Positions 1 to 8,716 of a stretch of 8,716 nucleotides of DNA are shown here, in pieces. The translations under genes and the position numbers were made by a program. The number at the start of each line of letters is the position of its first letter. Position 1 is the stretch's first letter. The stretch lies in IMG/VR virus record IMGVR_UViG_2579778956_000003, positions 1-8,716 of that record; one strand, given 5' to 3'. Source of the DNA: a virus. Taxonomy: Duplodnaviria; Heunggongvirae; Uroviricota; Caudoviricetes. The notes beneath the pieces were generated by a model. That model was not told the origin of the DNA, did not search any database, and saw only the letters and a program-made list of their open reading frames with translations.

Positions 1-1818
1 TTATCTTGCGTTTATTGATATATCAAAGAATGCGTTTCCTGTATTAAACATGTTTTGTTTTATATCGTCTGATGCTCCAGCTCTAAATATTCTCCTGAAA
101 TATATCCTTCCATCTGCCACATAAGGCTCTACGGCAAAAAGATTGGTATCTGATCTTATTGAGGTTGTAAGATTATTTGTTATTGAGCCAACAGCACTAC
201 CTGCTATTGTTGATAGGTAAGGAGGTAGTTGAATGTAAAATGTATCTCCTGAAGAATTATTAGTTATATTGCATGTTATAACTACACGTCCAATTACGGT
301 TTTTTGTAAAATATTATGCGTATATGACTGATTTGTATATGTACACGGTATATTTACTGTTGGCTTGTAGCTACCGCTTGCGATTGGATACAAATATGTA
401 GATTGCATATTTCCACCATAAACATAGTTGTTTAGCGGGCTTGCCGAATCTGTAAATGTGAAAAATCCATCATCTTCAATGTATGCATAATCACCTATTA
501 AGGGGCTAATAAAGGTATTCTCAGAACCAGATATCAGAAAAACCTTACCATATTTCAAGCCACAATCCTGATGAGATAGGTTCCTAGGTGATAAAAATGT
601 GTTGTTAAAACCAGAAATTACATAACCAATCCCTCCATTTGTAATACTGGCTGCTTGTGTTTTGTTTATTTTTTTCGGTGAGTCAGAATAGAATTGCACT
701 ACGTTATTACCACTACCGCTCATTTTAAGGCCGAATAACATATTACGAGTGGTTCTATCTGGTGATGACATTCCCCAGCAGTGGGCCTTTGATACTTGAT
801 TAGCATTTCCAGGCATATCAAGTCCAGTAGTATATCCTGAAACTATAACGTTAGAATAAAATGAATCTGACGTTTCATGTCTAATTCCTGCATAATCATG
901 AGAGTTATTTTGATCAAAAGGTGCAATGATTGAAATGTTTGATATGTTCCATCCATACCCCTTAACAATCTTAATTCCTCCCCTTCTCATGTTGAATGTT
1001 CTTAATCTTGATATGATCGGATCCACTCCATCAGTACCAAGAATACCAACAGCATCTATTACAGAGTCAGGGGCAATATATAGACCATCAATATGAACTC
1101 TATCACCTGTATCTATTGCCGTTATTCCATCATTGTAAGGATCCCTCCACGCGTCGTCTTTTACCTCAATAACAACATCATCTGAAAAGTCACGGGGTTT
1201 TATTTCTCCGAGATGCGTGACTCGTGAACCTGATTTATGAATAAGTCTTTCAGTTATACAACTTTTACCTACAAAAATAATATCTCTTTTGTTATCAGCA
1301 GACCAGTCAAGAGCAGTTTGATTTGCTATTGTATCATCAGTTACACCATCACATTTCGCACCAAAATATTTATTTGTAGGAATGTCTTTTAGAATGTCGC
1401 CAACGCTTCTAACAATGAATGGAGCTGATCCAGTCATGACTATGTCAGCACCAGAACTACTCTCAAGCTGTTGCCTTAACTGATCTGGGTCGTATTTTGC
1501 AATGTCAGGGAAGTAGAACTGCTGCGATCCATAGGCGTCGTAAACAGCCATGCTGTAATTCTGCACAGTAACGAACTTTGATATCTGCCCGTTGTAAACA
1601 GGATACCCACCCGCGTTAATAACTATCGGCTGAGCAGTTGGAATCAGATCTCCAGTTTCACTTTCAATATAAACAGGGATTTGATTCGCTGGGATTGTAG
1701 GATCGGTATCTGGTAGCCCAAGATAGATTTTACCGTTGGCATTTGCTTTAAATGAGCGTGCCAGCGTGAAAAGCTGCGCAGGCATCCCTACCACTAAGTT
1801 TGCGGTGATATCTGACAT
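1..1818 (-). CDS. Tailspike protein (P22 gp9-like N-terminal head-binding domain, divergent receptor-binding domain); 605 aa, stop codon at 1..3
   Basis: The N-terminus [34 protein letters not shown]...[10 protein letters not shown]...[10 protein letters not shown]...KYDPDQ closely matches the P22 tailspike head-binding domain as I recall it. The first Met of the tracked ORF (1866) adds 16 residues with no RBS; the ATG at 1818 is preceded by GGAG with a 7 nt spacer. The rest is Gly/Asn/Ser/Thr-rich as expected for a beta-helix receptor-binding domain. Confidence 0.9.
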
Positions 1819-1843
1819 TTCATTACTCCAAACGAATGATATG

Positions 1844-1866
1844 ATGCAACCATGATGTGATTGCAT
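1844..1866. promoter_or_regulatory. Near-perfect inverted repeat ATGCAACCA-N5-TGATTGCAT in the divergent tailspike/mnt intergenic region; candidate Mnt operator
   Basis: The two 9 bp arms match at 8 of 9 positions around a 5 bp spacer. It sits 26-48 bp upstream of the tailspike ATG and about 75 bp upstream of the mnt ATG. Ribbon-helix-helix repressors such as Mnt bind dyad operators of this size. Promoter hexamers could not be assigned with confidence. Confidence 0.35.
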
Positions 1867-1939
1867 ACCGAAATGGTACTATTGAGTATTTATCCAGTAG
1901 GTTACGATGCCATTCCACCCAACTGGTGAGGCATCAAGG

Positions 1940-2200
1940 ATGTACAGCAAATACGACGAGGCGCAGTTTCACTTGAGACTTCCGCATGAACTCCACGAGA
2001 AAATTAAACAGCGCGCGAAGATGAATAACAGGTCGCTGAACTCTGAGATAATTGCAGCGATTGAAGAATCATTGACTAAACAAAGCTCTGCATCAGTTTA
2101 CATTGACGATGCAGAGCGTATGGCAGAACAACAATCTGATATGGTTAAGAAAATTGTCTTTGATACGCTCAAGGAGCTATATAAAAAAGACAGCAACTAA
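1940..2200 (+). CDS. mnt: Mnt-like ribbon-helix-helix repressor (Arc/Mnt family), 86 aa
   Basis: The protein aligns over its whole length with P22 Mnt as I recall it: FHLRLPHELHEKIKQRAKMNNRSLNSEII versus FNFRMPMEVREKLKFRAEANGRSMNSELL, and C-terminal DDAERMAEQQSDMVKKIVFDTLKELYKK versus NDAERLADEQSELVKKMVFDTLKDLYKK. The start at 1940 is chosen because GGTGAGG lies 8 nt upstream; the tracked ATG at 1907 would add an 11-residue extension ahead of the DNA-binding strand. Confidence 0.85.
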   Translation: MYSKYDEAQFHLRLPHELHEKIKQRAKMNNRSLNSEIIAAIEESLTKQSSASVYIDDAERMAEQQSDMVKKIVFDTLKELYKKDSN

Positions 2201-2220
2201 CCATCCATTACGGAGGATTT

Positions 2221-2298
2221 ATGCAAAGAGATATGATGAATATTGCATTCTACATATTTGGTTTTTGCACTTTCCTGGTATTTGCAAAGCTATTCTGA
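2221..2298 (+). CDS. Hypothetical 25 aa hydrophobic peptide (MQRDMMNIAFYIFGFCTFLVFAKLF) just downstream of mnt
   Basis: GGAGG at 2212..2216 lies 4 nt upstream of the ATG at 2221. The product is a single predicted transmembrane helix. It is below the ORF-track length cut-off and its last codons overlap the convergent 3' end of the gp16-like gene. Confidence 0.25.
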   Translation: MQRDMMNIAFYIFGFCTFLVFAKLF

Positions 2299-4683
2299 CA
2301 ACGCATCAGACTTAGCCCCCTGCGTCAGAGCGTTAATTGTATTTTGTGCCTGCTGCATTGCTTTCTCAAAGGCTGTTGATCCGCGTGGGGTGTTTGCCAT
2401 TCGGAGCATTGCATTTCTGAATGGCTCGCTCTCATAGGCGCGAGTAAGAAGTCCGTAGCTTACTGCTGCGCCAGTTGTCGCCGGGTTCATTGCCGTCCCA
2501 TACCCAATAATGAACGGGATAGTTTGCTGTCCTGTGGGTGTTGTTACTGCCGCTTTTGCAGCCTGCTGCGTGGATTGCAGGTAGTTTTTCAATCCTTTCA
2601 GATAAGCAGCGTCCTGCCCCTTAAATGTGATGCCAGTCTGGTTTTGCAGGATGTTAAGCTGCCGAAGGAACTGGTCAGGGGATCCGCCAGATTTCTCCAT
2701 CGCCTTTCCAATGATGCCATTGCGCATTTGCGCCCTGCCAACACGACCAACTGAGTTATACAGCGTCTTAATTTCAGATTTGTTCTTGCTGAATAGCATG
2801 TTGTTGACAACTTCCGGCGTCAGATCGCCTTTCATGAGAACATTCTTCAGCCTGGTATTCTTTAGTTTCTCTGCTTCGTCAGCGTAGACGGCATTGGCCT
2901 GCTGATATTTACGGAGAGTATCGTTGCCAAGATTCTGACCAATGGCACCATTGATATCGTCGGTCATTGCCTTGTAAACGCGCTGAATGGCGGCATCGGA
3001 ACGGTTTGGTAACACTGGTCGCTCACCCTTCACGTCCATTCTGAACTGGCTGCGCAGGTCACTTAATTGCTTCAAATCCAGATTTACCGGACCATCAGGG
3101 CCAGCATTGCGAACAAGCTCATCACGATATGACTGAAGTTTTGAAATAGTCTCGTTATCAGCAACCTTACCAAGCTTCTGCAGGTTAGATATTTCTGTAT
3201 CAATCTGCTGAATTGCTCGCACAGGCTGAATGTTTACTCCAGCCATAGCATTCTGAACCTGCTCCAGTCGATTACCGGCGGCACGACGAATTCCTGATGT
3301 TTTCGCCTTAAGGCTGTCAATAACAACCGCTGGATCATACTCACCGAATTTATCGGCAAATCTCTGCACCAACTGGCTTCTCGCTTCCTGTTGCGTTGCT
3401 CTCATTCCGCTTGTGCCAGCCAGGGGGATATTTTCTGCTGTAGTCTGCGCCATTTTCCCGACGCGGGAAGTAGGCTGTAACAGGTCTGTGGTGTGCAGAG
3501 GAACTCCTTCACGCTCTGCAAACCTGATAGCCTGTTGAGCTTCTGGTGCTATCGAACCACGAACACCACGATAAGCAGCACCTAATCCACGTCCGGCAGC
3601 GTTAATAGCACCGCCAGCCAGCACACCAACGCCTAAATCGGTGGCGAGTGCTTCCGCATCATCTTTCGCACTGTTTGCAGCAAGTGATCCAACTGCGTTT
3701 TCTGCTAGAAGGCGAGTTGCCCCCTGAGCAATTCGACCAGCAAGTGTTGGTGCCTGTGTTGCCGCTCTCTCAACGCCAGCAGGAGTGAGGTAAGGCAATG
3801 CTTCGGCAAATACCCTTCCCTCTGTCGTTTGTGGAGTCAGCGCGCCTTGCTGAAGGCCAAAGTCCTGCTCTAATCCCTGCGTTGTTACTCGTGGTGCTGG
3901 TTGATATGTACCATCGCCAATGCCGAGTTTACCGCCAGCCCAAGCCGCCGCGCTTGTTACAGCATCAGTGAGTTCAGCAGGTATGTTCGCTACGTTGATT
4001 CCTGCCTGTAGTAAGCCGCGCCCGGTTTCAGCAAGTCCATTACCAAGGTCAGACATTATTCCGCCTTGCTGCTGAACAGGTTTCGGTGCGACAGAACTTA
4101 CGGGTTGAGGTGGCTGCTGACTGGCTGCCTGCTGCTCAATCTGAGCAAATGGATTATTTGGGTCTGACTGCACGCCTGATGCCGATACTTGTTCGGATGA
4201 CTGTGCTTCCAGTTGTGCAAACGGGTTGTTAGGGTCTTGCTGAGGATGTACCTTTGCAGAGGTGGCGCGCTGTTCGACTGTTGAGTCTGTCACCGGGTCA
4301 CCCGCCCATTGAGCAAAGCGATCATCAACGTAACCGCGGCCTTCAGGTCCTGGCGTATATTCACCACGCTTTGCCTTCATAACGTTGCCGGGACCGTCGT
4401 GATAAGCCTGAAGAGCGTCACGCCAGTTACCAAACTGCTGGTACATCTTTGCCAGATAGCGCGCGCCAGCGTCAGCCTGATATTCGGGGTTTTGCATTTG
4501 CTCATCGGTATAACCCATATCACGCCATGTCCCAGGCATGACCTGAGTCAATCCTACAGCCCCGGCGGAGCTTACTGCGGCAGGGTTGTAAGAAGACTCC
4601 TTGGCACCCAGTGCAGTCATCAACCCTTCTGGCACACCGTAACGTGCGCCAGCCTGCTCTAACAAATCACGGTAATTAGCCAT
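2290..4683 (-). CDS. DNA-ejection / internal virion protein (P22 gp16 position) with N-terminal lytic transglycosylase (SLT) domain, 797 aa
   Basis: The N-terminal ~110 residues carry SLT family hallmarks: GAKESSYNPAAVSSAGAVGLTQVMPGTW ... AGARYLAKMY ... ALQAYHDGPGN. It is the last of three tightly packed genes between gene 10 and the tailspike, and its ATG directly abuts the upstream TAA. A Gln/Ala/Gly-rich linker contains a duplicated DPNNPFAQ(L/I)E motif. Confidence 0.85.
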   Translation of the reverse strand: MANYRDLLEQAGARYGVPEGLMTALGAKESSYNPAAVSSAGAVGLTQVMPGTWRDMGYTDEQMQNPEYQADAGARYLAKMYQQFGNWRDALQAYHDGPGNVMKAKRGEYTPGPEGRGYVDDRFAQWAGDPVTDSTVEQRATSAKVHPQQDPNNPFAQLEAQSSEQVSASGVQSDPNNPFAQIEQQAASQQPPQPVSSVAPKPVQQQGGIMSDLGNGLAETGRGLLQAGINVANIPAELTDAVTSAAAWAGGKLGIGDGTYQPAPRVTTQGLEQDFGLQQGALTPQTTEGRVFAEALPYLTPAGVERAATQAPTLAGRIAQGATRLLAENAVGSLAANSAKDDAEALATDLGVGVLAGGAINAAGRGLGAAYRGVRGSIAPEAQQAIRFAEREGVPLHTTDLLQPTSRVGKMAQTTAENIPLAGTSGMRATQQEARSQLVQRFADKFGEYDPAVVIDSLKAKTSGIRRAAGNRLEQVQNAMAGVNIQPVRAIQQIDTEISNLQKLGKVADNETISKLQSYRDELVRNAGPDGPVNLDLKQLSDLRSQFRMDVKGERPVLPNRSDAAIQRVYKAMTDDINGAIGQNLGNDTLRKYQQANAVYADEAEKLKNTRLKNVLMKGDLTPEVVNNMLFSKNKSEIKTLYNSVGRVGRAQMRNGIIGKAMEKSGGSPDQFLRQLNILQNQTGITFKGQDAAYLKGLKNYLQSTQQAAKAAVTTPTGQQTIPFIIGYGTAMNPATTGAAVSYGLLTRAYESEPFRNAMLRMANTPRGSTAFEKAMQQAQNTINALTQGAKSDALSE
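4135..4236 (-). repeat. Duplicated 10-residue motif DPNNPFAQ(L/I)E inside the gp16-like protein (nt 4207..4236 and 4135..4164)
   Basis: Both copies translate to the same peptide but use different synonymous codons (gaccctaacaacccgtttgcacaactggaa versus gacccaaataatccatttgctcagattgag), which argues for conservation at the protein level. Confidence 0.6.
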
Positions 4684-6015
4684 TTACTGCCCCAAAGATG
4701 GAAGATATCCGTAGCGATTAATGAAGTCGATTGACAGCTCGGGGTGCTGCTTCAGGTAATCTATAGAAGCCTGAGGCGCTTCCACTCGCTTGATACCGTT
4801 TTGCTGAACGTACTTACCAACCGCCTCATTACGCTTCTGGTTGAGCGTGTTCAGGATGACGCCAGCGTTGCGACGAAAGGACTCCTCGCTCTGCGAGTTC
4901 TGCAGCGAACCAACAGCCTGGTCGAGCTTTTTGCCCTCGGCATCAGAAAGTGCGCCCATGCCTCGCATGGCCTGAACCGCTGTCAGGTATGCTTGTGATT
5001 TAAAGGTATCAAGTCGTGCCTGAGTGTCTGCAGCCTGTGAGCCTGGAACGTTGGGGATTACTCCACGTAAGCCTGTAATGCTCTTAAGTGAAGGAGAACT
5101 AACGATATCGTTCAGAGTGAACATGCTGGTTGTGAGGGTGTTGATGCCGTCTTTGTAGCCATCATTTAGCGCTTGCTGCTTCTGCTGCAACTGCTGGTTG
5201 TTGGCTGCTATGCGGCTCTGTATTTCCTGGCGCTTCAGGTCGTTAGTTTCTGCTGATAGCATCCGGTCAAGGCGCTTATTTTCGTTGTTAATGCGGTTTG
5301 TTTCTGCGTCCAGATTAATGCGCTGCTGACCTAAATTCGCCTGGATATCTTGCCCGCGCATTGTGATTGCCTGATTCCGAGCGGCGGTTTGCGAATCCAG
5401 GTCCTGACCGCGCATGGTAACCTGGCGGCCCTGCATTTTATCCTGTAGGTCAAAGTATTTTTCGGGTCCGAGACTGTTCATCCCCAGGTGATCGACAAAT
5501 TCGCCGAACTGCCGCGGGTTCTGTTGGTACATCTGAGCGACGTCCTGAGGATTAACGCCAACACGAGCTAACTCACCGGCGTTGTTTTGCAGCCATGATT
5601 GCATTGCTTCTGGAGACGATGACGCAAGGCGTGCGCCAGCCGCTAAGGTGCCGATAGAATTACGCTGGTCTTCATCAATGAATCCCATGCCTTTACGAAC
5701 AGATTCAATCTGGTCTGGATATTGAGTAGCCAACTGACGCAAAGCACCGCGATCACCAGACGCATAAGCATTAGCGTATGCCTGCTGAAATTCTTTCTGC
5801 CGCTGAGCCTGCTTTTCCTGCTGAAACACCCCCGCAATACCTGAAAGGCCTTGCAAAGCAGTCAGCCCAACATTGTTAGCGCCTGAACGCTCAATATCAT
5901 TGTTCTGCCTGATAAGCTGAAGCGTATTGCCGATGTCATTTACGCTCGGAGCGTTTGAGTTGACGCCGCCGATACCAGCCAATAATCCGCCATTTAATCC
6001 TTGCCAAGTAGCCAT
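4684..6015 (-). CDS. DNA-ejection protein (P22 gp20 position), 443 aa
   Basis: This is the middle of the three ejection-protein genes, with size close to P22 gp20 (about 470 aa as I recall). It is Gln/Asn/Ala-rich with coiled-coil-like segments, starts 6 nt after the gp7-like stop behind a GGGG RBS, and its stop TAA abuts the gp16-like ATG. Confidence 0.8.
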   Translation of the reverse strand: MATWQGLNGGLLAGIGGVNSNAPSVNDIGNTLQLIRQNNDIERSGANNVGLTALQGLSGIAGVFQQEKQAQRQKEFQQAYANAYASGDRGALRQLATQYPDQIESVRKGMGFIDEDQRNSIGTLAAGARLASSSPEAMQSWLQNNAGELARVGVNPQDVAQMYQQNPRQFGEFVDHLGMNSLGPEKYFDLQDKMQGRQVTMRGQDLDSQTAARNQAITMRGQDIQANLGQQRINLDAETNRINNENKRLDRMLSAETNDLKRQEIQSRIAANNQQLQQKQQALNDGYKDGINTLTTSMFTLNDIVSSPSLKSITGLRGVIPNVPGSQAADTQARLDTFKSQAYLTAVQAMRGMGALSDAEGKKLDQAVGSLQNSQSEESFRRNAGVILNTLNQKRNEAVGKYVQQNGIKRVEAPQASIDYLKQHPELSIDFINRYGYLPSLGQ

Positions 6016-6024
6016 GATTACCCC

Positions 6025-6717
6025 TTAAAACAACGAGCCAAGCAATCCGATACCAGCACCAATGCCAGCACCCCAAGGTGTTGATGTTCCCAAAAGGCTG
6101 GCAAGACCTGCACCGGCAATCGCACCAGACGTTCCGCCACTAATTGCTGTCTGAAGACTTGATGGTTTGTTGGCATTAGCAGCGGCAAGAGCTGCGCTTT
6201 GCTGTGCAATGCTGCTCATGTTGTTGGCGTACGTCTGCCCGGCGTTTGCCTGACCTTGCAGAGCACCAAGCCCAACGTTTGCCAGATTGTTGTAATTGCT
6301 CATCTGGTTTGATAACCAAGACTGACCGAGAGTCGGCGCGATCGTAGCCAGTTGATTGCTTGTGGCTGTCGAACCAAGTCCACCCGTCGCCTCCGCAGCA
6401 GCAAGACTCTGGTAACGCGCCTGACCTGCAAGGTCTTTATACTGCTGAGAGTTGTAATACTGATTAAGTGCCTGCCCCTGACCTTCTAAACTGGAAAGAT
6501 TCTGCAACTGGTTAACATACTGCTCCGCAAGAGGCGTGAACGGAGCAAGGTTTTTCATGATCGTCTGCCACTGCTGATTTTGCAGGTCTGCTGCATACTT
6601 CTGAGCTTCTGCGGCATACTTTGCGCTTTTATCAGAACTGCCACCTTTCCCACCCTTTTCAGGGCAATAAGGTTCCTCGCCGCGCAGTTTTCTGCCCAGC
6701 TTAAATGCATATAACAT
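6025..6717 (-). CDS. DNA-ejection protein (P22 gp7 position), 230 aa
   Basis: Length is almost identical to P22 gp7 (about 229 aa as I recall). The N-terminus MLYAFKLGRKLRGEEP is followed by low-complexity Gly/Ala/Gln/Ser-rich sequence. A GGGAGA RBS lies 5 nt upstream, and the start sits 2 nt after the stop of the upstream ORF. Confidence 0.8.
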   Translation of the reverse strand: MLYAFKLGRKLRGEEPYCPEKGGKGGSSDKSAKYAAEAQKYAADLQNQQWQTIMKNLAPFTPLAEQYVNQLQNLSSLEGQGQALNQYYNSQQYKDLAGQARYQSLAAAEATGGLGSTATSNQLATIAPTLGQSWLSNQMSNYNNLANVGLGALQGQANAGQTYANNMSSIAQQSAALAAANANKPSSLQTAISGGTSGAIAGAGLASLLGTSTPWGAGIGAGIGLLGSLF

Positions 6718-6719
6718 GG

Positions 6720-7091
6720 CTATCTCCCGTGATTCAGGAAGTCGATTAGTTCTTCGCGTGTGGCGCTGTAAAAAGTCACGTCATCCACGCCTTTGAAGTA
6801 TTTCTTGATGGTTCCTACTCGCTTAAGGCCAATCATTGCGCAGTACATCTGACCGTGGCGGAATTTGCGTGCAGCGAACGATGTGACGCACTGAACGGTG
6901 GTGTTAGTCAGAATGTATCGCCAGAACGCCAGCCCGATTTCCTTGCTGAATCCACGAATCTCTGGCAGGTACATGGCGTGGCAATCAAAGGTTAGCGGCT
7001 GAATCTCCTGATAGTAAACAATTCCGCCGAACTGCCCGTGCACGTTCACCTCAAAGTAACGGCATACAGTCCTGTTTTCAACACACACCAT
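6720..7091 (-). pseudogene. 3' remnant of the gene preceding gp7 (gene-14 position in P22), out of frame with the gp10-like ORF; alternatively a small independent ORF starting at GTG 7043 (107 aa)
   Basis: The reading frame ends 2 nt before the gp7-like ATG, with the gp7 RBS inside its last codons, as expected for the authentic 3' end of a late gene. Its 5' end overlaps the end of the gp10-like ORF in a different frame. A possible restart signal (GAGG, 5 nt spacer, GTG at 7043, overlapping the upstream TGA) exists but may be fortuitous. Confidence 0.35.
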
Positions 7092-8110
7092 TGCGGACCA
7101 TTGGCGCTTGAAGATGCGTCGTACACGAGAACATGGCGCGCAAGATGGATAATCAGCAACTCATGCGCATCAAATCGCAGAGACTCCATCACGCCATCAG
7201 CCAGTTCATCAGCAGTGTAGGAGCGTAGTATTTTCTCAATGCTCGCGCTGGCGATTGGTGATACCTGACCAGAGCCGATGATATACACAGACGGCGCACC
7301 TGTTGCCGGATTGCTGATGAACGCATACGAATCAGCGAACTGCGTTTTGCAGTAGGTTCCAGCGATACCTTTCTGCACCATTAACGATGGCTGGGCGACA
7401 TACAAAGCAGCACCAACGGTGGTTGCGCCAGTCAGGGAGAAATATTCAATCGTCGATGAACCAAAGCAGACGATAAAGTCTCGCCATGTACCTATGCCGA
7501 TGATGCCGTCAGGCTGCGATTCTGCACGATATTGTGCGCTGTAGCGGTCAGGGTGCGATTCGTCTTCAAGGTCAGTGATAAACCATGAATCAGTACCGTC
7601 TTTTGACCACGCATAACGCCCACGTAAGCGCGTAATGTCGCGAACTGAACCTAACTCATACTGCGTAAAACCGCTGTCTGCAGGCCAGTTTGATACGGTT
7701 TTAACCGTGCCATCATAGCGATACTCGACCAGTTGACCATTAACGCCTACAGCCTGAGATGTTCGACCATGCGCCATTGATACGCGGCCACTTCCGGCGA
7801 CGTCACCGACTTCGCTTTCGCCCTTATACAGCTTGCCACCACACACGCGATAAACAGCATTCTGCGCCATGTTGTACTCGACGCCTCGCGATACGCCGTT
7901 CACATCAGAACGTTTGGCAATGCCCGGGAATGAGCGAAGATATCCGCTGCTGTTCAGGATTTCTTTGGGTGTAGCCAACATATTCACTGGCAGATAGTCG
8001 ATATAGTCGGCGTTTCGAAAGTCTTTGCCGACACCTTTCATAAGCGGAAGTTGCTGAACCTTGAGGCTAAATGCGCGAAGATGGCTGCTGAAAATACCTC
8101 GCTTAAGCAA
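7046..8110 (-). pseudogene. Tail hub / packaged-DNA stabilisation protein (P22 gp10-like), lacking its C-terminal ~125 residues and probably its native start
   Basis: The region from LPLMKGVGKDFRNADYIDYLPVNMLATPKEILNSSGYLRSFPGI to QWCVLKTGLY matches my recollection of P22 gp10 residues ~9-345 at high identity. Similarity stops after TGLY, followed by AVTLR and a stop, whereas gp10 is about 472 aa. The tracked start is a TTG at 8110 with no RBS, the first ATG (8041) also lacks an RBS, and the 5' end overlaps a plus-strand gene. Confidence 0.6.
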
Positions 8111-8365
8111 TCTGAGAAGGAATTTAATGACTTTTGTCGTGAGGAGTTTAGCGAATGGGAAGATGATGTTACTGAAACCCCAGCCACCGATGCTTTCCTG
8201 GCTGAAGTACGGGCGCAGGGGGTAGAGATGTACGCAGATAACCTCGACAACGGAGCAGACGACGCAGAACGAGGTGGTTTTGATTATGCCGTTAAGTTTC
8301 TACGCAGTGAAGCGTCTAGTGTACGTTTGTTCGCCGACCAGCTTCGCAAAGGAGGCAACCAGTGA
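8081..8365 (+). CDS. Hypothetical acidic protein (about 94 aa from ATG 8081; start uncertain, possibly 5'-truncated)
   Basis: The ORF has roughly 22 Asp/Glu against 10 Lys/Arg. No convincing RBS precedes the ATG at 8081 or the TTG at 8051, while an internal ATG at 8228 has GGGGG 5 nt upstream. Its stop overlaps the GTG of the next ORF (GTGA), suggesting coupled translation. It is on the same strand as the downstream AlpA-like gene. Confidence 0.4.
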   Translation: MAAENTSLKQSEKEFNDFCREEFSEWEDDVTETPATDAFLAEVRAQGVEMYADNLDNGADDAERGGFDYAVKFLRSEASSVRLFADQLRKGGNQ

Positions 8366-8481
8366 GCAAGATTGACTATCAGGAACTGCGTGAGATAGCA
8401 AAGCACCAGAGACTTACAGAAGAATCAGCGAGCTACGCAAGGACTAACGCCTCACACTCGATGAGGCCTGTACATATCTGA
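8362..8481 (+). CDS. Hypothetical 39 aa protein (MSKIDYQELREIAKHQRLTEESASYARTNASHSMRPVHI), translationally coupled to the upstream ORF
   Basis: GGAGG at 8351..8355 lies 6 nt upstream of the GTG at 8362, which overlaps the upstream stop codon. The ORF is below the ORF-track length cut-off and ends just before a terminator-like hairpin. Confidence 0.3.
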   Translation: MSKIDYQELREIAKHQRLTEESASYARTNASHSMRPVHI

Positions 8482-8484
8482 TAG

Positions 8485-8510
8485 AGCCGCTATATGGCGG
8501 TTTCTTTTTT
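8485..8510 (+). terminator. Candidate intrinsic terminator (short GC stem AGCCGCT / GGCGGTT with ATAT loop, followed by a T-rich run TTTCTTTTTT)
   Basis: The hairpin and T-tract lie 4 nt after the stop of the 39-codon ORF and about 15 nt before the RBS of the AlpA-like gene. The stem is short and includes G-U pairs. Confidence 0.3.
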
Positions 8511-8524
8511 CCTGGAGAATTAAG

Positions 8525-8716
8525 ATGACCGATACCAGCCTGATTCCTGAGAAAGAAGTGATGAACAAGCTCGGTGTTTCATCACGTCAGACAATCTGGA
8601 ACTATACCAAACGGCACGGATTTCCGAAGCCAGTCAGAACCCACCCCAAATCATACCTTCGTGAAGCTGTTGAAGGGTGGATTCTTAACGGTGGCGTTAA
8701 TCAGAAATGCTCCTGA
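8525..8716 (+). CDS. AlpA-family phage regulatory protein / excisionase-like DNA-binding protein, 63 aa (complete; stop at 8714..8716)
   Basis: The sequence KEVMNKLGVSSRQTIWNYTKRHGFPKPVR...PKSYLREAVEGWI fits the AlpA/Xis-type helix-turn-helix signature (L-G-V/L-S-x-x-T-I/L ... FPKP ... W-x-x-x-E-V-x-x-W-I). GGAG lies 7 nt upstream of the ATG. Its orientation, opposite to the late genes and reading away from them, is what a prophage xis gene pointing toward int would show. Confidence 0.75.
   Translation: MTDTSLIPEKEVMNKLGVSSRQTIWNYTKRHGFPKPVRTHPKSYLREAVEGWILNGGVNQKCS

Follow-up and report, generated by a model that had tools for sequence, protein, structure and literature searches.

The 8,716-nucleotide stretch of viral DNA analysed here (IMG/VR record IMGVR_UViG_2579778956_000003; hereafter the window) appears to form the middle 8.7 kb of a cryptic prophage, 11.5 kb long and of the Sf101/IME10-like P22 type (Lederbergvirus), located at sbcB, which has suffered two illegitimate deletions and whose late genes are most likely silent. 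A probability of roughly 92% is given to this reading. In the history proposed, an Sf101/IME10-like parent phage would have integrated at a 13-bp attachment (att) core at the 5′ end of sbcB. A single illegitimate deletion of about 23.5 kb, with 1–2 nt of microhomology, then fused an early-left ‘ea’ gene, at its nucleotide 175, with gene 10 at nucleotide 8, and took all the recombination, immunity, replication, late-activation, lysis, packaging and head-assembly genes. A 1,170-bp deletion between 7-bp direct repeats followed, in this strain's contig only. Since no head, terminase, lysis, replication or immunity gene is left, the element is incapable of making particles and is a remnant, not a phage.

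The two deletion junctions

The window matches the draft contig AYKE01000009.1 (NCBI GCA_000511565.1) with 100% identity over all 8,716 bp. The joint of the founding deletion (junction 1) is located at window positions 8057–8060. Alignment to phage IME10 halts at 8058, 7 nt before the gene 10 ATG, while from 8057 on the window follows, at 99.7% identity, one uninterrupted stretch of the prophage of E. coli O19:H7 strain 730V1, which runs from nucleotide 175 of a 483-nt early-left gene annotated as ‘hypothetical’ (ea160) through an AlpA-like gene to the integrase gene. Nucleotide 8 of gp10 is coupled there to nucleotide 175 of the ea gene, at codon 59. A large internal deletion from the early-left arm to the start of gene 10 had been put forward in a first reading of the window (the original prediction), and it is borne out by the colinearity of the window with both ends of the 730V1 prophage. 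The missing interval, measured on 730V1 from ea160 nucleotide 174 to gp10 nucleotide 7, amounts to about 23.5 kb; in it lie abc2, erf, the immunity region, the replication genes, nin, Q, the lysis genes, both terminase subunits, portal, scaffold, coat and gp4.

Sister contigs were retrieved by exact-protein look-up, using the tailspike and the 94-residue truncated ea product, which yielded the source contig and 12 others. Across these 13 distinct contigs, which come from NCBI and from Logan assemblies, junction 1 is identical. A 33-nt exact probe spanning it found no match among the GTDB species-representative genomes, and among complete E. coli genomes none carries junction 1 and none covers at least 80% of the window; that set does not include the source lineage.

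The second deletion (junction 2) has left one copy of a 7-bp direct repeat at 7063–7069. It removed 1,170 bp, taking the last ~137 codons of gp10, gp26 in its entirety and about 35 codons at the start of gp14, and it is later than the ~23.5-kb deletion; the junction 2 probe matched this contig alone and is thus strain-specific. Gene 10 had been described from the outset as broken, which is correct for the loss of its first 7 nt between 8058 and 8059, but this second break had been missed.

Gene content of the window

The gene content was established from six-frame open reading frames (ORFs) and a Pfam profile search of the window, with the following result.

1–1818, minus strand: tailspike, 605 residues, intact (Pfam Head_binding, E 5e-56)
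1819–1939: divergent intergenic region between tailspike and mnt (inspection of the sequence)
1940–2200, plus strand: mnt-like Arc/Mnt ribbon-helix-helix repressor, 86 residues (Pfam Arc, E 4e-16; Repressor_Mnt, E 3e-14)
2290–4683, minus strand: ejection protein at the position of P22 gene 16, 797 residues, intact, with an N-terminal SLT domain (Pfam, E 3e-25)
4684–6015, minus strand: gp20 ejection protein, 443 residues, intact (Pfam Inj_translocase, E 8e-68)
6025–6717, minus strand: gp7 ejection protein, 230 residues, intact (Pfam P22_gp7, E 2e-134, full profile length)
6720–7062, minus strand: gp14 (DUF2824) remnant without its first ~35 codons (Pfam DUF2824 match from profile position 36)
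7063–7069: junction 2, surviving copy of the 7-bp direct repeat (alignments to sister loci L004, L006, L011 and L014)
7070–8058, minus strand: gp10 remnant, about codons 3–335 of 472 (Pfam Phage_stabilise, profile positions 6–332 of 469)
8057–8060: junction 1, joint of the ~23.5-kb deletion, GCTGAA|CCTTGAGG, 1–2 nt microhomology
8059–8365, plus strand: early-left ea gene, 3′ 102 codons of a 160-residue gene (99.7% identical to the 3′ part of WP_086186016.1, E. coli 730V1)
8362–8481, plus strand: unannotated 39-codon ORF (ORF scan)
8484–8503, plus strand: terminator-like hairpin followed by a T run (sequence)
8525–8716, plus strand: AlpA/Xis-like helix-turn-helix gene, 63 residues (98.9% DNA identity to the ‘AlpA family’ region of Sf101, over 8448–8716)

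The late-operon Pfam families stand in P22-like order and strand, except that gp26 is wholly absent from the window and that gp10 and gp14 are cut by the secondary deletion. The original prediction had the genes in their right places, and its gp10-like and ejection-protein assignments are upheld by the Pfam matches; the gp14 fragment and the loss of gp26 had been left out. Its statement that the ejection genes, mnt and the tailspike gene are intact agrees with full-length ORFs supported by Pfam. Two small ORFs had been reported upstream of the AlpA-like gene: the second is the 39-codon ORF, but the first turns out to be the 3′ part of the ea gene. The gp10 remnant lacks both a start codon and its C-terminal third, and intact gp14 measures 151 residues in sister genomes. 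The protein at the gp16 position belongs to the precomputed family PF26808 (Phage_P22_gp16), and its PDB matches, to Slt70 and EmtA, span residues 4–110 only. The length of gp20 equals that of IME10 gene 20, and the mnt ORF, if taken from position 1907, would encode 97 residues. In the ea fragment, gene callers choose the ATG at 8081, giving the 94-residue product, for which the Pfam search gave no family. The AlpA-like gene has a weak Pfam Phage_AlpA match (E 0.003, below the family cut-off) and overlaps the end of the integrase gene convergently, just beyond the window. A 123-residue fusion ORF is absent from the recorded gene calls, and an Rfam scan of the window returned zero matches.

The 605-residue tailspike gene call is the same across 10 assemblies. 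The N-terminal head-binding domain is conserved, and the receptor-binding part (about residues 175–605; window 1–1470) is of a distinct type, with a G+C content of 36% versus 52% in the ejection genes. Matches to solved structures, the tailspikes of Sf6 and P22, reach residues 1–174 only, and no PDB match extends beyond residue 174. An identical pair of tailspike and neighbouring acyltransferase is present in a full-length P22-like prophage of E. coli 2017.15.01CC (L023 6937–9818), beside tRNA-Arg/intS.

Integration site and flanks

In the source contig and in the 12 sister contigs, the element lies between sbcB and dacD. An integrase had been expected to the right of position 8716, and it is there: a 392-residue protein, identical to Sf101 Int at 388 of 392 positions (99%), followed by sbcB. 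Calls of a ‘298-aa integrase’ in some sisters might have been taken for truncations; the DNA is identical to that of the 392-residue version, and the difference is one of start choice by the gene caller. On the left of the window come a 342-residue acyltransferase (Acyl_transf_3), then dacD, sbmC and yeeA.

The 13-bp sequence CGTAATCGTGAAA is the published att core of Sf101 and of phage 2851 (PMC4159516). Exactly two copies are found, at L005 1717 (5′ end of sbcB) and 13227 (upstream of dacD), 11,510 bp apart, where 0.04 copies would be expected by chance. The attachment site is therefore this sbcB core and not of the tRNA type that had been anticipated; ARAGORN finds no tRNA gene within 21.8 kb around the element. 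On the left side, where attR or gtr genes had been foreseen, the att core does precede dacD, but no gtr gene is present at the element or its flanks and the gap between tailspike and attR is occupied by the acyltransferase, which is not OacB. The predicted absence of capsid, portal and terminase genes holds for the whole element, no head, terminase, lysis, replication or immunity gene being found between sbcB and dacD in the source contig and its 12 sisters. The element's only genes are int, the AlpA-like gene, the truncated ea gene, the late structural genes, mnt and the acyltransferase gene.

The remnant lies ~7.5 kb from hisL/hisG (L016 11977–20285), and so near the usual position of the O-antigen cluster, a proximity which could connect the tailspike–acyltransferase pair with recombinational exchange of O-antigens. 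On the dacD side, past yeeP (L005 17676–21689), IS3-family insertion sequence (IS) fragments, a group II intron reverse transcriptase and an IS110-type transposase are found. This IS-rich flank could point to a genome of Shigella-like or pathovar type.

A recurrent breakpoint at the gene 4/gene 10 boundary

The gp10 end of the founding deletion belongs to a cluster of breakpoints at the gene 4/gene 10 boundary. A site located in gene 4, 102 nt before its stop codon (...GGTTTGGATA|ACCGGAC..., the bar marking the break), is the endpoint of at least 10 independent deletion junctions, the partners all being different. L015 was returned by the look-up with the 94-residue ea product, and the junctions listed after E. 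coli 3PT came from scanning public collections with a 22-mer ending at this gp4 site; all are given below with the positions of the site.

L015: last 102 nt of gene 4 joined to the same ea gene as in the window, in a remnant at torS with a lambda-type integrase
E. coli 3PT: same 102-nt gp4 stub joined to abc2, in an sbcB remnant
L024: a further partner sequence
L030 and L169: near DUF2740/O
L107: portal
E. coli ETEC4068 and P15-25: small terminase
E. coli GPEC1240: DUF2560
L212: junction with the opposite side kept
Positions of the gp4 site: L001 (IME10) 10919/10920, L022 12196, L015 ~9989, L024 10471, L087 9300, L408 6111
Positions on the reverse complement: L030 9800, L107 5598, L169 481, L212 6268

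All loci outside this junction set run on as normal gp4. Wherever the intact partner sequence is known, a TA microhomology is seen at the joint. Common descent of the junctions was considered and rejected: the loci bearing them each have a different intact phage as nearest match, and the events are thus independent. Among complete E. coli records, a probe ending 45 nt past the gp4 site is covered by 246, and a probe that ends 65 nt beyond the site by 219; the site is therefore where about 27 records (11%, for this gp4 type) stop, a figure that counts records and not independent events.

The window's own gp10 break has one counterpart. E. coli GPEC1240 (L408, between 6001 and 6002) keeps just a 110-bp piece, from the gp4 site to gp10 nucleotide 7 (CACAAA|TCGGCAT), so that its left break falls at the window's gp10 break position (nucleotide 7/8), with the opposite side retained. 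No further example of a break at gp10 nucleotide 7 was found in 270 loci (left side kept: 0 of 270) and in 206 loci. The heptamer GATAACC is common to the window's ea break (TTGATA|ACC, 8053–8060) and to the gp4 site (TTGGATA|ACC), and it is cut identically in both; the gp10 endpoint of the sister L007 (L014 ~8824) reads GCGGATA|ACG. GATAAC is thus in phase at 3 of about 19 distinct endpoints, where a rough estimate gives ~0.03 expected. Neither of the other two sites recurs: the ea160 site was found broken in 0 of 82 loci, and the GGATA|ACG site of L007 in none of ~190 gp10-context loci. Two deletion endpoints of the sister L010 carry CCGATA|.

A mosaic boundary is also observed in this region. 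Roughly three in four P22-like prophages of E. coli share the 5′ end of gp10 but change to a different gp4 type ~6 nt ahead of the gp10 ATG, a sharp boundary that lies ~13 nt from the window's junction.

The proximity of these sites raises the question of whether the window's joint arose in two steps, the gene 4 break site being joined first to the ea gene, as in L015, with a deletion of ~117 bp over the joint thereafter. In L015, despite its torS location and different integrase, gp4 (at –102 nt) is indeed fused with this ea gene, at a point 8 nt away from the ea breakpoint of the window, and the window's gp10 break lies 110 nt from the gp4 site. No L015-type joint was found on the background of this element, however, the gp10 of L015 is just 93% identical to that of the window, and one event accounts for the joint equally well. 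Such a two-step origin is accordingly considered unlikely, without being far-fetched.

Candidate mechanisms for the breakpoint

It is tentatively suggested, as a proposal more apt to fail than to hold, that the deletions forming P22-like remnants are non-random and are seeded by sequence-specific nicks or breaks at the gene 4/gene 10 boundary. A site-specific nick would leave an exact 3′ end at a replication fork, which would be rejoined through 2–3 nt of homology, and this sequence of events would account for one fixed end with a variable partner.

Several known signals were searched for at the gp4 site. Its likeness to the XerCD/dif site (14 of 22 positions) does not support that assignment, since 32 IME10 sites score as high and shuffled genomes give 15–18. 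Likeness to the P22 pac sequence is at background level, and so is the local hairpin, a weak one with z about –1.7. Read on the reverse strand, the site gives TTATCCAAA, an 8/9 match to the DnaA box, of which about eight per phage genome are expected by chance on an estimate. No Chi octamer was seen near the site in a check by eye only.

An I-HmuI-like nicking HNH homing endonuclease is one candidate agent, because free-standing NUMOD4-HNH genes sit in the same region of other P22-like prophages, either after gp10 nucleotide 92 or between gp10 and gp26 (L325, E. coli OZ040490, 725–3371; L087 7225–7758; L409–L438). These cassettes come with a recoded gp10 end (72–82% identical), at the 5′ or the 3′ end, respectively. 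I-HmuI is a nicking homing endonuclease. It is also the only solved-structure relative of the NUMOD4-HNH proteins (1U3E). The left boundary of the first cassette lies within 2 nt of the gp10 deletion endpoint of the sister L009 (window 7972). The HNH enzyme of the gp10 5′-end cassette itself is probably not the agent for this site, since a phage carrying the cassette (L414, same contig as L157) has an unchanged gp4 site. Some host nuclease or a replication-arrest site would be just as good a candidate as an HNH endonuclease.

Decay across sister genomes and expression of the late genes

The deletion map was drawn with the least-deleted sister, L014, as reference. The sisters differ by at most 2 substitutions per ~12 kb, yet they hold seven different deletions, that of the window included.

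Window: 1,170 bp, loss of the gp10 3′ end, gp26 and the gp14 5′ end
L007: 2.2 kb, loss from gp20 to gp10
L009 and L017: 3.3 kb, loss from gp20 to gp10, with the same gp20 endpoint as L007
L010: 1.5 kb, loss of gp16/gp20
L008, L012 and L019: 1.3 kb, loss within gp16
L018: 6.4 kb, loss from the tailspike head-binding domain to gp10
L020: 5.0 kb, loss from the mnt stop codon to gp26
Deleted intervals in L014 coordinates: 2230–8637, 2948–7933, 3583–4854, 4938–6398, 6590–8823, 6590–9891 and 7820–8979

The gp20 endpoint common to L007 and L009 reads CGCAATA|CCTG (window 5839) and is joined to different partners. Because near-identical sisters carry other deletions, the late genes look to be decaying rather than under purifying selection.

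The suggestion that the surviving genes could still be expressed is not supported, the late promoter and antiterminator being gone and the sisters deleting the same block of genes. With that late promoter and antiterminator lost, the truncated gp10 and gp14, together with gp7, gp20 and gp16, are most likely silent passengers, as judged from the sequence. For mnt and the tailspike, a present-day role is perhaps retained through divergent transcription from their own intergenic region (1819–1939), which presumably holds promoters and an operator. The promoter search there gave just weak 9/12 sigma-70-like matches, shuffled sequence holding more sites, and no promoter-like signal in the window exceeds the shuffled controls. 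A role of the acyltransferase in O-antigen modification is possible.

Three observations weigh against a silent, decaying prophage remnant. A cryptic promoter or read-through could still drive transcription of the late genes; the intact state of gp7, gp20, gp16, mnt and the tailspike fits a recent origin, but some selection may be involved as well; and no complete E. coli genome matches the chromosomal flank at more than 99.8% identity. A rival view is that the host keeps the block of ejection, Mnt and tailspike genes as a useful module, for example with O-antigen trimming for phage exclusion or with the SLT-bearing gp16 as a weapon. The five genes are indeed intact and tightly packed in this strain, the tailspike and acyltransferase genes are intact in most sister contigs, and the O104:H4 remnant has also retained a tailspike and acetylase (PMC3303846). 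Yet the sisters have independently lost gp16 (L019), gp16 and gp20 (L010), gp20 to gp10 (L007, L009), everything from the stop codon of mnt as far as gp26 in L020, and everything from the head-binding domain of the tailspike as far as gp10 in L018. The promoter matches do not rise above chance, and, because an exact match was demanded in the look-up with the tailspike, the sample is biased towards intact tailspikes. Domestication thus appears improbable.

Excision of the remnant may still be feasible, because Int, AlpA, attL and attR are all intact. On this ground the element could be taken for a helper-dependent satellite or mobilisable island equipped with its own tail and ejection proteins and packaged by a P22-like helper. 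This is very improbable: genes for replication, for the small terminase (or another pac-bearing gene) and for capsid remodelling are all missing from the element, it is found at sbcB only, in one near-clonal genome set, and it is being progressively deleted. An assembly chimera of two unrelated prophage fragments, conceivable for a draft contig that is alone in carrying junction 2, can be practically dismissed, given that junction 1 is identical in all 13 contigs of the independent NCBI and Logan assemblies, that junctions 1 and 2 are both embedded in a 149-kb contig flanked by normal chromosomal sequence, and that two samples are reported to carry the junction-2 contig.

Significance

Read as an eroding prophage, the element is an ordinary object, a defective Sf101-like prophage of a known kind. 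It provides a documented case of an Sf101-type sbcB element reduced to its integration module and distal late genes, in which deletional decay in progress is visible across near-identical genomes. It also preserves a tailspike whose receptor domain has no solved relative, beside an acyltransferase. If the gene 4 breakpoint were a specific nuclease or arrest site, it would offer a testable mechanism for the disarming of lambdoid prophages, and the same site would explain the frequent retention of the tail end of the late operon in remnants.

Comparison with known systems

The best overall DNA match, over window positions 1478–8058, is coliphage IME10 (NC_019501), at 95.4% by megablast and in two pieces around the second deletion, whereas Salmonella P22-like phages reach ~79% DNA identity to the window. 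Unlike the present element, IME10 is a complete phage, with IntS integration of the argW type and a different early-left arm.

The Shigella flexneri phage Sf101 (NC_027398) shares the att core and the sbcB site, with 99% identity in Int and 98.9% in the AlpA region. The order gp10-26-14-7-20-(SLT-gp16)-mnt-tailspike-acyltransferase is alike, with ~95% DNA identity from gp10 to gp20. In contrast, Sf101 is a complete, inducible phage of 38.7 kb, its tailspike receptor domain is different, and its OacB (390 residues) is only remotely related to the 342-residue acyltransferase (32% identity over 62 residues).

The 730V1 prophage (NZ_CP061764) has the same site and att cores, a 99.7% identical int-AlpA-ea160 arm, and a P22-like late operon ending in a tailspike and an acyltransferase. 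It differs in being apparently complete, with 38,531 bp between the att cores and every functional module present, and in having an arc/ant-type immI region and another tailspike and acyltransferase.

Satellites of the phage-inducible chromosomal island (PICI) or P4-like kind carry their own replication and packaging-redirection genes, and this element has neither. A closer parallel is found in the E. coli O104:H4 German outbreak strain, where a P22-like remnant, with much of its prophage gone, kept an O-antigen-specific tailspike and an adjacent putative O-antigen acetylase; that tailspike reported the host O-antigen and was the basis for a targeted bactericidal agent (PMC3303846). The locus, the tailspike and the deletion of the O104:H4 remnant all differ from those of the window.

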